This document shows positions 2,231 through 54,681 of a stretch of 64,000 nucleotides of DNA, one piece after another. The translations under genes were made by a program, and so were the position numbers. The notes beneath the pieces are model-generated. The model ran no database searches. It was not told the DNA's origin and worked only from the letters and a program-made list of their open reading frames with translations. Origin of the DNA: Eledone cirrhosa (Eukaryota); assembly GCA_964016885.1 (NCBI GenBank), contig OZ024745.1:99634001-99698000 (forward strand), read 5' to 3'. Positions within the stretch are counted from its first letter, which is position 1. Every line of letters begins with the position of its first letter.

Positions 2231-2416
2231 TCTGAATATATATATAAGTATGTATACGTACATACATACATGCATGCACACATATATATATATGTACATA
2301 TGGATTCACCGAACATTTATTATAATGCTCGGTGTGTTTGTAAACAAACATCCCGAATTAAGCCGTACAGTGTCTAGCAACCATCATTGCTCATTTGTTC
2401 AACACTGACAAAGGAA

Positions 2417-2457
2417 CGCTGTACTAGTTTCAAGCTTATTAGCTATCGTCAGCAACG
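2417..2457 (-). ncRNA. Minimal type I hammerhead ribozyme motif (minus-strand copy)
   Basis: Minus strand reads CGTTG-CTGACGA-tAGCTaataAGCTt-GAAA-CTAG-TA-CAGCG. Helix I is CGTTG/CAGCG, helix III is the palindrome ACTAGT, and the triplet is GUA. Confidence 0.7.
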
Positions 2458-2611
2458 TATACCTTCCTGCCAGATGGTTGAACGTCTGAAAGTATATACT
2501 TTCCTTATGCATATTAATGGCTGAGCAGCCTAATTTGCATATCGAGTGAGTTAATATGCATAAGGAAAGTATATACTTTCAGACGTTCAACCATCTGGCA
2601 GGAAGGTATAG

Positions 2612-2651
2612 GTTGCTGACGATAGCTAATAAGCTTGAAACTAGTACAGCG
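2612..2651 (+). ncRNA. Minimal type I hammerhead ribozyme motif
   Basis: GTTG(2612-15)-CTGACGA(2616-22)-helix II AGCT/AGCT closed by U.U-GAAA(2637-40)-CTAG-TA(2645-46)-CAGC(2647-50). Predicted cut after 2646. Confidence 0.7.
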
Positions 2652-2936
2652 TTCCTTTGTCAGTGTTGAACAAATGAACAACGATGGTTGCTAGACACTG
2701 TACGGCTTAATTCGGGATGTTTGTTTACAAACACACCGAGCATTATAATAAATGTTTGGTGAATCCATACGTACATATATATATGTGTGCATGTATGTTT
2801 ATATATATATATACATACTACTGTTCGTCTGTATACATATATGTATGTACGTATACATACTTATATTTAAGTAACAGCCGTACTAAGAGTGAGAAATGAA
2901 ATTTCGTTTCATTTTTTCCGTTTATATATATATATA

Positions 2937-3200
2937 TCATCATCATCATCAACGTTTAACGTCCGTGTTCCACGTTTGCATGGGTTTGGACGGGGGTTTT
3001 CCCACTTGAGGCAAGAGTGATTGTCTTGCTCGCATAGGACTGTCTGGCAGGTTTTCTACAGTTGGATGCCCTTCCTAACACCAACCACATTTACAGTGTG
3101 GGTCTGGGAGGTTTTTACCATGTTTGCCTACATGGCCACATTACAGCGTGGACTGTGTGTTTTTTTGTCGTGACACCTACACGATCTCATTTGTTTCGGC
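2937..3200 (-). mobile_element. RTE-tailed SINE fragment related to family A
   Basis: (CAT)n tail followed by cgtttaacgtccg...ggatgcccttcctaacaccaacc, the reverse complement of the family A 3' module. Confidence 0.75.
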
Positions 3201-3327
3201 CTGGATGGTGTGGCACCAACATAACTTTACATAGAAGGGGGCGGTGTGGATGGGGTGGGACGTGGGTGTATTTTGTTAGAGGTGCCTACTGATTGTAGTA
3301 GGTTTTAGTAGTAGGTTATATATATAT

Positions 3328-3400
3328 AAATAAAAGTAGTTCCACAACAATTAGTTCACCATACCGAGAACAAATGTTTCACCTTAAGCAGATCTTCAGA
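3328..3400 (-). mobile_element. 5'-truncated Penelope-like tail with partial hammerhead motif, embedded in (TA)n
   Basis: Minus strand reads CTGAAGA-tctgcttaaggt-GAAA-CATTTG-TT-ctcgg. The 5' strand of helix I is replaced by the TA repeat. Confidence 0.4.
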
Positions 3401-3419
3401 TATATATACATACACACAT

Positions 3420-3450
<31 letters not shown>

Positions 3451-3451
3451 A

Positions 3452-3597
3452 TGTAGTTTGATTGAAGCATTGTATATGATATAGATTACCAGGTAACTTA
3501 CTTTTTCGTTACCTCATCTTACAGTGCATTTTGCATTGTTTAGCCTTCTATCTCTTTCCACATAATATATCATATACAATGCTTCAAGCAAACTACA
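3452..3597. repeat. Small fold-back element with 32-bp inverted arms
   Basis: TGTAGTTTGATTGAAGCATTGTATATGATATA (3452-3483) versus TATATCATATACAATGCTTCAAGCAAACTACA (3566-3597), one mismatch. Confidence 0.8.
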
Positions 3598-3602
3598 ACA
3601 TT

Positions 3603-3957
3603 ATCATCATCATCATTTTACGTCCGCTTTTCCCTGCTTGCAAGGGTGGGACAGGAACTGATTCTGGCTTGATTTCTACAGCTGGATGCCCTTCCTAACA
3701 CCAACCTCATTTACAATGAGTGCTGGGGGCTTTTTTCCCATGGCGCCCACACGTCCACTTTACAGTGTGGGCTGGGTGCTTTTTTGCCGTGGCACCTCCA
3801 CGACCACTTTGCAGTGGAATGATCTCATTTCTACAGCTGAGTAAACTGGAGCAATGTGAAATAAAGTGTTTTGCTCAAGGAAACAACAGATCACTCGGTC
3901 TGAGAATTGAACTCACAACCTTTCAATTGCAAGGCCAATGCTCTAACCACTGAGCCT

Positions 3958-3960
<3 letters not shown>
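3603..3960 (-). mobile_element. SINE family A
   Basis: Reverse complement of 487-824, including the (CAT)n tail and A/B boxes. Confidence 0.9.
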
Positions 3961-4102: not shown

Positions 4103-4173
4103 TATTTTATCTGATGAGAACGCAGATATCATCCCATGATGATATTTGTTTTTGAAATGCGCATAATAAAATA
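4103..4173 (+). ncRNA. Type I hammerhead ribozyme motif with long helix II, inside a (TA)n-flanked insert (~3997-4207)
   Basis: TATTTTAT(4103-10)-CTGATGA(4111-17)-long helix II (gcagatatcatc/gatgatatttgt)-GAAA(4154-57)-TGCGCA-TA(4164-65)-ATAAAATA(4166-73). Perfect 8-bp helix I and perfect palindromic helix III ATGCGCAT. Confidence 0.75.
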
Positions 4174-4203
4174 CTTGGAACTCTTTTAACCATCTTTTGA
4201 TCT

Positions 4204-4243
<40 letters not shown>

Positions 4244-4650
4244 ACTCCAGGGTAATATATATATAACAAGAAAAAAAAACAATGAAATAAAGAAAGAATT
4301 TTGTTGCTTGATATTATATATATATATATATATTCAAATATAATTTCAAAGAGACCGTATTTCGGCGGGGGTCAAAAACAAAACGAAACGCAATCTTCGA
4401 GATATGTGGACTAAAAGATGACCAGAGCAATTAACATACATTATAAAGGCCAGATAAAATGAAAACAGTGGTGTGAAGCCATCAGCCACCGGAGCCCAAA
4501 AAAAAACGAAGCAAGCTAAACAGGTTAACAAAAGAATTTATATATATATATATATATATACACATATATATAAAATTCAGGATTTTATGTATATTATGAG
4601 GTATCAAATGTGTTTTTTTTTTTTCTCACTCTCTTGGCTTGAAACTTAGT

Positions 4651-9599: not shown

Positions 9600-9651
9600 A
9601 ATATTGGAGGTACATAATAAAATAAATTTGGAGGCACATAATAATAAAATT

Positions 9652-9990
9652 GGAGGCACATGGCCTAGTGGTTAGAGCATTGGCTTTGCAATCGAAAGGT
9701 TGTGAGTTCAATTCTCAGACCGGGTGATGTGTTGTTTCCTTGAGCAAGACACTTTATTTCACATTGCTCCAGTTTACTCAGCTGTAGAAATGAGATGATA
9801 GGGACTGGGGTGCCTGCCTATCATTCCACTGCAAAGCAGTCGTGAATGTGTCACGGCAAAAAAGCCGCCAGCACTCACTGTAAATGAGGTTGGTGTTAGG
9901 AAGGGCATCCAGCTGTAGAAATCAAGCCAGAATCAGTTCCCATCCCACCCTTGCAAGCAGGGAAAAGCGGACGTAAAAATGATGATGATG
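9652..9990 (+). mobile_element. SINE family A (full length)
   Basis: Near-identical to 487-824, with (GAT)n tail. Confidence 0.92.
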
Positions 9991-10202: not shown

Positions 10203-10537
10203 TCATCATTTCATCATACGTCCACTTTTCCCTGCTTGCAAGGGTGGGACGGGAACTGATTCTGGCTTGATTTCTACAGCTGGATGCCCTTCCTAACACC
10301 AACCTCATTTACAGTGAGTGCTGGGGGCTTTTTTGCCGTGGCACCTTCATGACCACTCTACAGTGGAATGATATGGACCCCAGTCCCTATCATCTCATTT
10401 CTACAGCTGAGTAAACTGGAGCAATGTGAAATAAAGTGTCTTGCTCAAGGAAACAACACATCACCCGGTCTGAGAATTGAACTCACAACCTTTCGATTGC
10501 AAGGCCAATGCTCTAACCACTAAGCCATGTGCCTCCA
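10203..10537 (-). mobile_element. SINE family A (full length, inverted relative to the 9652 copy)
   Basis: Reverse complement of 9652-9990. Confidence 0.92.
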
Positions 10538-11047
10538 TATATATATATATATATGCTAGCATGGAAAATGGATATTAAACGATGATATATATCTCATTCT
10601 TCTTCTTCCAAGCATGAAACTAATACACTGCATGTTATTTCATCCTCTTGTTTGAATCCCTCTCTTATAGGCCCTTACATGCTATATTAAATACACTTGC
10701 TCGAGGTATTGTACAGTAGGATTGTATATAGAACTCTGCAGTTGTGAAGTGAACTAAACTACATATACATACACGTCTGTACCCTTGACCAAAGATATCC
10801 CAGCTGTGAACAATGCATCGTTTTGTACTACATTATCTAATGTGTTCCTCCTTAGTTTAACTCTGAACATCCTGGGATGATTTAACAGAAAACATCTGAA
10901 ATAGGTTTGTTAATTCATATTCTTATATTTTTATTGGTGGACAGATCATTGTGAAAATTTGCAACATTAGACTAAAGTAAAGATTGGAATTTTTAATGTG
11001 AGACAGTCAATATTATTTTGTACTTTTCAAGAATCTCTTGCAAATGT

Positions 11048-16205: not shown

Positions 16206-16415
16206 CCCTTTAGCATTTACATTATTCTATTTTTACAATTGTATTTTTGCAGTAAAGACATAATTATCTCACATAATAACAAATTTATGAGATTTTGATA
16301 TTATTTATTTTGAGAACAATACCTAAACATCGGCATAAGTGGCTGGTTACAGCCGGCTTGAACAGAAAGAAGTGAGAGTTTCTGGCCGGATATGACTGGT
16401 TTAAATGCTAAAGGG
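16206..16415 (-). mobile_element. MITE family M1
   Basis: TTAA|CCCTTTAGCATTTAC...TTTAAATGCTAAAGGG|TTAA. Confidence 0.9.
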
Positions 16416-16638: not shown

Positions 16639-16859
16639 CCCTTTAGCATTTAAACTGGCTGTATCCGGCCAGAATGTTTTCACCTCTTTCTGTTCAAACC
16701 ACCTATAACCGGCCACTCATACTGATGTTCAGGTATTGTTCTCAAAATAAATATCATCAAAATCTTGTAGATTTGATATCATGTGAGATAATTATGTAAG
16801 ATAAAGCCTTTGCCACAAAAATACAACAGGATACAGAGAGTAATGTAAATGCTAAAGGA
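16639..16859 (+). mobile_element. MITE family M1 (inverted relative to the 16206 copy)
   Basis: TTAA|CCCTTTAGCATTTAAACTGG...GTAAATGCTAAAGGA|TTAA. Confidence 0.9.
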
Positions 16860-52329: not shown

Positions 52330-52771
52330 GAGAGAAAAAGACTCCGTTCAGTCATGAATAACCATGTATTTTTCACCTAGAAAATTCCCTTTTGAGGCAC
52401 AAGCCTGGGAAAGATGTTTTTGTGGAAGCCTAACAGTTACACATGCATACCAGTCTCCCTTCTCTATGTCACCAATGTTGTCCAAGAGAAAGACAAACGT
52501 TGATACAGCTTGGTGCCAGTGACGTTGCAACATGAAATAAAGTGTCTTGCTTAGGGACACACTACACCACCCGATCCAAGAATTAGGGGCACAAAACACC
52601 ACCTGATCCAAGAATTAGGGGCACAATACACCACCCGATCCAAGAATTAGGGGCACAATACACCACCCAATCCAAGAATTAGGGGCACAATACATCACCC
52701 AATCCAAGAATCAAACACACAACCCCACAATTGTGAATCCAACACTTTAACCACTAAGCCATGTGTCTTCA
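52330..52771 (-). mobile_element. CORE-type SINE (family A-like head) with an internal 32-bp repeat in 5 copies (52553-52711)
   Basis: gaaataaagtgtcttgcttagggacac (CORE reverse complement) and head ccactaagccatgtgtcttca. (g/a)atccaag recurs at 52573, 52605, 52637, 52669 and 52701. Confidence 0.75.
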
Positions 52772-54681
52772 CACATTTGAACTAACAAATCTACTAAGCC
52801 ATGTATCTTCACACATTTGAATTAACAAACCTACTAAGCCATGTGTCTTCACACATTTGAATTAACAAACCTACTAAGCCATGTGTCTTCACACATTTGA
52901 ATTAACAAACCTACTAAGCCATGTATCTTCACACATTTGAATTAACAAACCTACTAAGCCATGTATCTTCACACATTTGAATTAACAAACCTACTAAGCC
53001 ATGTATCTTCACACATTTGAATTAACAAACCTACTAAGCCATGTACCTTCACACATTTGAACTAACAAATCTACTAAGCCATGTATCTTCACACATTTGA
53101 ATTAACAAACCTACTAAGCCATGTATCTTCACACATTTGAATTAACAAACCTACTAAGCCATGTATCTTCACACATTTGAACTAACAAACCTACTAAGCC
53201 ATGTATCTTCACACATTTGAATTACCAAACCTACTAAGCCATGTGTCTTCACACATTTGAATTAACAAACCTACTAAGCCATGTGTCTTCACACATTTGA
53301 ACTAACAAACCTACTAAGCCATGTGTCTTCACACATTTGAACTAACAAACCTACTAAGCCATGTGTCTTCACACATTTGAATTAACAAACCTACTAAGCC
53401 ATGTATCTTCACACATTTGAACTAACAAATCTACTAAGCCATGTATCTTCACACATTTGAACTAACAAATCTACTAAGCCATGTATCTTCACACATTTGA
53501 ACTAACAAACCTACTAAGCCATGTGTCTTCACACATTTGAATTAACAAACCTACTAAGCCATGTATCTTCACACATTTGAACTAACAAATCTACTAAGCC
53601 ATGTATCTTCACACATTTGAACTAACAAATCTACTAAGCCATGTGTCTTCACACATTTGAACTAACAAATCTACTAAGCCATGTGTCTTCACACATTTGA
53701 ATTAACAAACCTACTAAGCCATGTATCTTCACACATTTGAATTAACAAACCTACTAAGCCATGTATCTTCACACATTTAAATTAACAAACCTACTAAGCC
53801 ATGTGTCTTCACACATTTGAATTAACAAACCTACTAAGCCATGTATCTTCACACATTTGAATTAACAAACCTACTAAGCCATGTATCTTCATACATTTGA
53901 ATTAACAAACCTACTAAGCCATGTATCTTCACACATTTGAACTAACAAACCTACTAAGCCATGTATCTTCACACATTTGAATTAACAAACCTACTAAGCC
54001 ATGTATCTTCACACATTTGAATTAACAAACCTACTAAGCCATGTGTCTTCACACATTTGAATTAACAAACCTACTAAGCCATGTGTCTTCACACATTTGA
54101 ATTAACAAACCTACTAAGCCATGTATCTTCACACATTTGAATTAACAAACCTACTAAGCCATGTATCTTCACACATTTGAATTAACAAACCTACTAAGCC
54201 AAGTGTCTTCACACATTTGAATTAACAAACCTACTAAGCCATGTGTCTTCACACATTTGAATTAACAAACCTACTAAGCCAAATGTCTTCACACATTTGA
54301 ACTAACAAATCTACTAAGCCATGTGTCTTCACACATTTGAATTAACAAACCTACTAAGCCATGTGTCTTCACACATTTGAATTAACAAACCTACTAAGCC
54401 ATGTGTCTTCACACATTTGAATTAACAAACCTACTAAGCCATGTATCTTCACACATTTGAACTAACAAACCTACTAAGCCATGTCTTCACACATTTGAAT
54501 TAACAAACCTACTAAGCCAAGTGTCTTCACACATTTGAACTAACAAATCTACTAAGCCATGTGTCTTCACACATTTGAATTAACAAACCTACTAAGCCAT
54601 GTGTCTTCACACATTTGAACTAACAAATCTACTAAGCCATGTGTCTTCACACATTTGAATTAACAAACCTACTAAGCCATG
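52751..54681. repeat. 40-bp tandem satellite, ~48 copies
   Basis: Unit CTACTAAGCCATGT(A/G)TCTTCACACATTTGAA(T/C)TAACAAA(C/T), head-to-tail with no spacers; one 2-bp deletion near 54483. Confidence 0.98.

Follow-up and report, generated by a model that had tools for sequence, protein, structure and literature searches.

Background

During L1 twin priming a single RNA is reverse-transcribed from both ends of the target and the cDNAs are joined by microhomology, whereby a non-overlapping 5' piece is inverted. For Penelope-like elements an inverted copy, a one-sided tail and a bias towards (TA)n are already in print, as is the likely Penelope origin of retrozymes. The origin of tandem and inverted Penelope structures was called undefined in the section of PMC8557442 dealing with them, and self-priming was put forward as a hypothesis for the inverted copies in the corresponding section of PMC3846280. 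In vitro, both strands of the target are cut and extended by the protein of an anole Penelope-like element, and synthesis begins at two sites which bound the tail (PMC11167929). In that system the two strands showed no difference in start site, and hammerhead cleavage was dispensable for insertion.

Metazoan retrozymes are covered by Cervera and de la Pena 2020 (PMC7229834) and by Li, Clavereau and Pollet 2026 (bioRxiv 10.64898/2026.07.22.740005). The relevant parts of both texts base their mobilisation by Penelope enzymes on phylogeny and on the co-occurrence of the two kinds of element. Palindromic hammerheads with a short helix III are described in passages of PMC4209133 and PMC7229834 as working as dimers and as weak or inactive alone.

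Structure of the palindrome

We analyzed a stretch of 64,000 nt of the Eledone cirrhosa genome (contig OZ024745.1, positions 99,634,001 to 99,698,000), here referred to as the window. The locus under study is an ordinary member of an abundant 430-nt hammerhead repeat and consists of two 5'-truncated copies arranged head to head (Table 1).

A first-pass annotation had described a giant hairpin with near-perfect arms and a 33-nt loop, and this was confirmed. The inverted repeat (2279-2517 / 2551-2789) has 97% complementary arms at a spacing of 33 nt, its 219-bp core (2299-2517 / 2551-2769) contains 4 mismatches, and the predicted fold of 2245-2865 reaches -476 kcal/mol versus -144 +/- 4 kcal/mol in 20 shuffles. 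The microsatellite "extensions" and the loop, initially taken as flanks, are both pieces of the ~430-nt unit. The right end had been set too short at 2865, since the element spans 2242-2925. A shortened mirror of the AT/AC block is located at 2242-2301. The junction microhomology derives from unit 393-398, which is the reverse complement of unit 430-5, and is placed within an (AT)n run. The insertion was into a (TA)n target.

The arms are unequal. They differ by five substitutions, by the 38-nt internal deletion of the left arm and by the 59-nt tail of the right arm. With a GC content of 38%, they have a CpG observed/expected ratio of 1.01 and 0.91, respectively, versus 0.28 across the window, and each arm diverges by 1.4-1.9% from the family majority. 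CpGs are thus retained, and the low divergence supports the earlier suggestion of a young insertion. Four of the five substitutions between the arms are at CpG; such a bias fits methylated neutral decay, and the locus is likely a passive, methylated, decaying copy. Its left end is short and its right end long in the sense defined below, and it was scored apart from the family count owing to the 38-nt deletion.

Table 1. Features of the palindromic locus (positions refer to the window; unit positions refer to the 430-nt repeat)
Feature	Position	Strand	Remarks
Left leftover of the (AT)n target	2234..2241	.	read from the sequence
Left arm	2242..2555	-	5'-truncated unit copy that begins at 393, passes 430/1 and stops at the short 3' end (~312); 38-nt deletion in the unit's microsatellite; end abuts (AT)n
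Type I hammerhead, minus	2417..2457	-	intact core, 5-bp helix I, palindromic helix III
Loop, 33 nt	2518..2550	-	unit 398-430, carried by the left arm alone
Octamer ATGCAAAT	2533..2540	-	unit 408-415; in most family copies
Inversion-junction microhomology	2550..2555	.	6 nt common to both arms
Right arm	2550..2925	+	5'-truncated unit copy, 430/1 to the long 3' end at 371; abuts (AT)n
Type I hammerhead, plus	2612..2650	+	intact core; predicted cut between 2646 and 2647
AT/AC microsatellite block	2767..2866	+	internal to the unit, ~217-312
59-nt tail	2867..2925	+	unit 313-371, right arm only; predicted 12-bp hairpin
Right leftover of the (AT)n target	2926..2937	.	read from the sequence; target duplication indistinguishable from microsatellite

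The repeat unit and its family

The unit of 430 nt was defined from 17 full monomers of 422-435 nt. Within the genome of 3.0 Gb, one 22-mer of the unit had 10,685 exact matches, which is a lower bound for the number of copies, and a second one 8,950. A search of the species' own genome gave 1,632 candidates, 40 of which were scored. In the scored loci an arm was as a rule preceded by the reverse complement of the loop and followed by the microsatellite and the stretch that extends to 2925 in the window. Tandem arrays of the unit exist as well, for example at loci L017 and L061-L067. Monomers of the same array differed by 0-1.2%, compared with a distance of 1.5-4.1% to the family majority (four array loci, two of them being one array).

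No stop-to-stop frame of at least 70 aa was found inside the element; one frame (2108-2377) enters it from the flank. When folded as a circle, a natural monomer reached -131 kcal/mol (z -6.6, 60 shuffles), which is partly due to the microsatellite. From its sequence features we regard the family as a probable non-LTR retrozyme, with predicted self-cleavage and predicted circles. An active retrozyme locus, as defined by Li et al. 2026, comprises at least two tandem units with complete hammerheads. Such tandems are present at L017 and L061-L067, whereas the locus in the window has less than one unit and one hammerhead per strand. A MITE or fold-back DNA transposon was rejected, as 41 of 79 clusters are in a single orientation, junctions vary and tandem arrays occur. 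No account of this repeat family was found in the openly accessible main texts of the literature.

Orientation, ends and junctions of the insertions

Two position-ordered samples were analyzed, one of 79 clusters in chromosome order and one of 25 clusters obtained with another search pattern, together with selected loci. In both position-ordered samples together, 50 of the 104 insertions were head to head. The first sample contained 36 head-to-head, 41 single, 1 tail-to-tail and 1 mixed cluster, and in the second one 14 of the 25 clusters were head to head. The palindrome is real but not unique: about half of the insertions of the repeat family have this layout. These orientation counts, as well as the relevant parts of PMC8557442 and PMC3846280, support the comparison with Penelope-like inverted insertions that had been drawn before.

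Two fixed 3' end sites are found in the family, ~59 nt apart: a short one at unit ~312-315 and a long one at unit 371. Ends at unit 300-322 were classified as short and ends at unit 355-373 as long. Copies in single orientation had the long end in 20 cases, the short end in 14 and another end in 5. By comparison, one short and one long end were paired in 47 of the 50 scorable inversions (p=2e-11 against one half) and the rule was broken in three. The pairing was seen in 21/22 inversions of the first sample, 10/11 of the second and 16/17 of the selected loci; the unbiased samples alone gave 31/33 (p=7e-8). Of 72 inversions considered, 22 were left out of this count because an end was at neither site (12/36, 3/14 and 7/24, respectively). 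Overlapping duplicate loci, one duplicated insertion (L118) and one inversion cut by the locus edge were also removed. No short/long rule in the form of a count was found in the openly accessible main texts; supplementary material to PMC7229834, to PMC11167929 and to the 2026 preprint may be relevant here.

The two arms of an inversion were nearer to each other than to other copies at 42 of 43 loci (medians 4.0% versus 7.1%). At polymorphic sites they carried the same allele in 569 of 625 comparisons, versus 54% between loci, and linked haplotypes agreed between the arms in 16/19 and 33/36 loci. Discordance between arms amounted to about 3 loci per site, with 9/43 at one site. The tail-less arm reached further 5' at 26 of 47 loci and the tailed arm at 18, with three ties. 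As the tail-less arm often extends beyond the tailed one on the 5' side, neither of them is contained in its partner. The lengths of the arms were uncorrelated (rho -0.10), with differences of up to ~700 nt.

The ribozyme cut site was traversed by 54 of 56 copies. Since no 5' ends were found at the cut, we rejected a linear monomer released by the ribozyme as the template. Because the copies cross it, the template would have been circular or an uncut multimer.

The exact junction of the window with its 33-nt loop was found in 10 of 18 matches of a junction pattern. These ten loci comprise two loop haplotypes and carry the tail on either arm, which implies that the junction arose repeatedly at the 6-nt inverted repeat of the unit. 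A single palindromic master for the ten loci was rejected on the same grounds, two loop haplotypes and both short/long arrangements being present. None of the 36 junctions in the first unbiased sample had this exact form: it is a small hot spot among many junctions. An overlap of at least 3 nt was present at 14/36 junctions, versus 7% for random exact pairs, where the observed side is inflated because BLAST overlaps allow mismatches. Inserted bases were found at 12/36 junctions.

At two further loci (L002:1012-1067 and L224:1564-1609) the inverted arm consists of the tail, or of a part of it, alone. These look as if the primer at the long site had halted at or before the short site.

Predicted hammerhead ribozymes

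One hammerhead per strand, pointing outward, had been annotated, and this is confirmed by type I cores (CTGACGA) at 2616 (+) and 2452 (-), both of which face away from the loop. A motif scanner found three hammerhead motifs in the window, whereas 30 first-order Markov sequences had 0.3 on average. At the gathering threshold, Rfam called the tRNA-like head of a SINE alone, and the hammerheads were not called. In the minus hammerhead helix II stands on a U.U, and cleavage is predicted between 2422 and 2421. In the plus hammerhead a C-to-G substitution at 2611 removes the outer pair of helix I, so that 4 bp are left. Family-wide, the core was intact in 186/222 copies. The compensatory pair of helix I was U.G in 157, A-U in 30 and G.U in 20 of the 222 copies, and helix II rested on U.U in 205 of them; both tallies count copies, not independent events.

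Helix III (ACUAGU) forms 1-2 pairs as a monomer and six between two molecules. As a single hammerhead is present per strand here, no dimer can be formed in cis.

In silico folding bears out the proposal that a read-through transcript would bury the ribozyme: the pair probability of helices I and II was predicted as 0.00 in read-through RNA of either strand. The complementary proposal, that transcripts started in the loop would free the ribozyme, was borne out in part. Helix II was predicted to be restored on both strands, whereas helix I had a probability of 0.45-0.94 on the minus strand and a weak 0.05-0.10 on the plus strand. The proposal is further weakened by the form of helix III, for which a second hammerhead is reported to be needed, given one hammerhead per strand.

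Search for an autonomous partner

The element contains no open reading frame for reverse transcriptase (RT) or GIY-YIG; such frames occur elsewhere in the genome. A terminal repeat matching the unit was found in none of the 44 GIY-YIG loci analyzed out of 10,596 candidates, three of which had only neighbouring insertions. Other families of this genome behave in the same way, among them the Penelope-type loci L173 (RT and GIY-YIG) and L181 (GIY-YIG), each of which is arranged head to head and has a long end on one arm and a short end on the other; the layout of these other families was judged by eye from a few loci.

In the hammerhead of a Penelope-type family at L111, L171, L172, L175 and L181, helix II rests on U.U and helix III is a palindrome of 6 nt, as in the unit. 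This family is a candidate partner, with no detectable sequence similarity to the unit. At L169 an 844-aa RT frame is followed, after ~1.7 kb, by a tandem unit of 459 nt with a long-helix-II hammerhead (6200 and 6659). This is either the terminal repeat of that RT element or another retrozyme family.

Neighbouring features

Further hammerheads and inverted repeats are present in the window. At 4103-4174 (+) a hammerhead of another family was found, with an 8-bp helix I, a long helix II and a palindromic helix III; its copies at L073 and L122 also show the head-to-head layout and combine a long with a short end. A third family is represented by a truncated hammerhead-like copy (3320-3399, minus strand), which ends in (AT)n and has a related copy in L181. 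Beside it lies a small inverted pair with 32-nt arms (3452-3483 / 3566-3597). A degenerate hammerhead-like stretch at an (AT)n boundary (~4345-4410, minus strand) was recognized by eye but missed by the scanner.

At 9644-9975 / 10217-10544 a tRNA-headed SINE-like repeat is present as two inverted copies with a complementarity of 94-97%, the tails of which point inward and which have a smaller inverted repeat between them; related copies were found at ~485-830 and 2933-3960. An inverted pair of 118 nt with 86% complementarity (16258-16375 / 16680-16797), close to repeated TTAACCCTTTAGCATTTA ends, resembles a small element of the DNA-transposon type. Additionally, a 40-bp minisatellite with 48 copies and 96% matches spans 52749-54681.

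Origin of the palindrome

We consider it fairly probable that the hairpin is one insertion of a probable retrozyme, consisting of two truncated copies which were written by a borrowed Penelope-type enzyme priming at both (AT)n ends. From the observed unit, arrays, two 3' ends, head-to-head joins, short/long pairing and shared haplotype we infer the following course. Tandem copies would be transcribed, cut pairwise and circularised. On one circular or multimeric RNA the enzyme would initiate two cDNAs, one per site, each end of the cut (AT)n target priming one of them, and both cDNAs would terminate at independent lengths. Their 3' ends would then anneal, by 6 nt at the locus in the window, each templating the second strand of the other. 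The product would be a palindrome, the loop of which represents the surplus length of one cDNA. The uncorrelated arm lengths, the like layout of L173 and L181 and the two start sites of the anole protein, which extends both target strands (PMC11167929), also favour this course.

The broader proposition, that Penelope-type integration is obligatorily two-ended and that one RNP assigns both target ends to two start sites on one circular RNA, might in our view equally hold or fail. Two-ended priming on one RNA was not found described in the openly accessible main texts of the literature. Points against the course described above are the lack of a homologous autonomous partner in the 44 GIY-YIG loci, the 3/50 exceptions to the rule, the 22 of 72 inversions with an end at neither site, the discordant arms, the modest microhomology and the inserted bases at junctions, as well as the in vitro results on the start site, which did not differ between strands, and on the dispensable cleavage (PMC11167929).

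The main rival retains the same family and the same enzyme but derives the inversion from self-priming by fold-back or template switch, with a staggered endonuclease cut later trimming the tail from either arm; the folding strand would be cDNA or antisense RNA, the latter as proposed by Arkhipova et al. 2013. The haplotype shared by the arms is expected here too, the 6-nt inverted repeat of the unit, 33 nt apart, would permit such a fold-back, the junction recurs at ten loci, and parts of PMC3846280 and PMC8557442 propose self-priming with endonuclease resolution of the tail. However, self-priming without trimming predicts the loop on the tailed arm, and the reverse is seen in the window and at 26/47 loci. 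Uncorrelated arm lengths with their large differences, discordant arms at some loci and the coincidence of the tail ends with the starts of reverse transcription in PMC11167929 also speak against it, and we would rather regard it as unlikely. A palindrome formed after insertion, by inverted duplication or repair of one copy or by a second copy landing alongside, is improbable. It is true that the AT-rich block of the unit is itself an insertion target and receives other insertions, as in the nested clusters L004 and L129. Yet the inverted repeat ends at the two 3' ends of the element itself and includes no unique flank, the orientation is strongly one-sided and follows the short/long rule, and independent copies should match at ~54% of the polymorphic sites, whereas 91% was observed.

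That the inversion is an assembly or chimeric-read artefact is hardly credible. The short-read runs are uninformative either way: none of their listed contig pieces spans the stretch, and reads derived from the repeat swamp the signal. The arms are told apart by their substitutions, deletion and tail, the ends follow the rule of the family, the identical junction is present at 9 further loci, with two haplotypes among them, and the flanks are unrelated. We also assign a very low probability to the locus being a retained regulatory device, in which a bidirectional octamer promoter, two ribozymes and read-through dsRNA would form a switch for ADAR or Dicer. The folding model does predict that the ribozymes are sequestered in read-through RNA and released in RNA started in the loop. 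Furthermore, the loop contains the octamer as first annotated, its chance occurrence per unit is ~3%, and newt satellite 2 is cited in part of PMC2220036 as carrying an snRNA-type promoter. This octamer is a standard component of the unit, however, being present in 147/179 family copies, and a promoter role was not supported. In the 320 nt upstream of five host U2 genes neither the octamer nor a similarity above shuffles was found, so that these U2 genes give no support to an snRNA-promoter satellite of the newt satellite 2 type. No Pol III A box was found by a pattern search. Against a retained device are also the likewise palindromic layout of about half of the family insertions, the arm differences, which are largely CpG decay and one of which weakens helix I, and the lone hammerhead per strand, which has no partner in cis. 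No Pfam match was obtained in the 32 frames tested of the window's 114 long ones (short exons would escape), and hence no host gene was shown.

Significance

The locus alone is minor: palindromes like it probably number in the thousands. As a natural archive of integration events the family is large, and its ends likely record how the elements are copied into DNA. Taken together, the short/long rule, the shared haplotype and the independent arm lengths make a sharp prediction for the in vitro system of PMC11167929. If true, the two-ended rule would account at once for three features of Penelope-like elements, namely their inverted copy, their one-sided tail and their palindromic junction, and would be a direct demonstration that Penelope enzymes copy animal retrozymes. 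If transcribed, the many palindromes of the family would be a large source of dsRNA.

Comparison with known systems

The family shares with metazoan non-LTR retrozymes the non-coding tandem unit of 150-450 nt with a GC content below 50% and one type I hammerhead, as given in the relevant part of PMC7229834. The predicted self-paired circle and the co-occurrence with Penelope-like elements are further likenesses, according to parts of PMC7229834 and Li et al. 2026. In contrast, the locus in the window with less than one unit per strand is a dispersed offspring and not an active tandem, and inverted insertions or tails do not appear in the portions of these two sources that concern retrozymes.

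Among the hammerheads, axolotl HHR_Amex1 likewise has a helix III with one pair and a palindromic tetraloop, and HHR_Amex2 a U.U at the base of helix II, in the passages describing them. The type I core, the helix I of 4-5 bp and the short palindromic helix III resemble the terminal-repeat hammerheads of Penelope elements in the corresponding part of Cervera and de la Pena 2014 (PMC4209133). Helix II differs, since it has 3 bp above U.U and lacks the G10.1-C11.1 pair stressed there.

The insertions resemble those of endonuclease-bearing Penelope-like elements in their 5' truncation, partial tandems and adjacent head-to-head inverted copy as well as in the one-ended tail and the (TA)n targets, as described in parts of PMC8557442 and PMC3846280. 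Two 3' ends bounding the tail are common to both as well (PMC11167929), and 5' truncation with an inverted copy, the one-sided tail with its two 3' ends and the (TA)n target are all found here. Unlike in Penelope-like elements, the tail is ~59 nt instead of 30-40 nt long and no RT/GIY-YIG gene is carried. In contrast to L1 twin priming, one and the same sequence is represented in both arms here, and their starts lie at two fixed internal sites.
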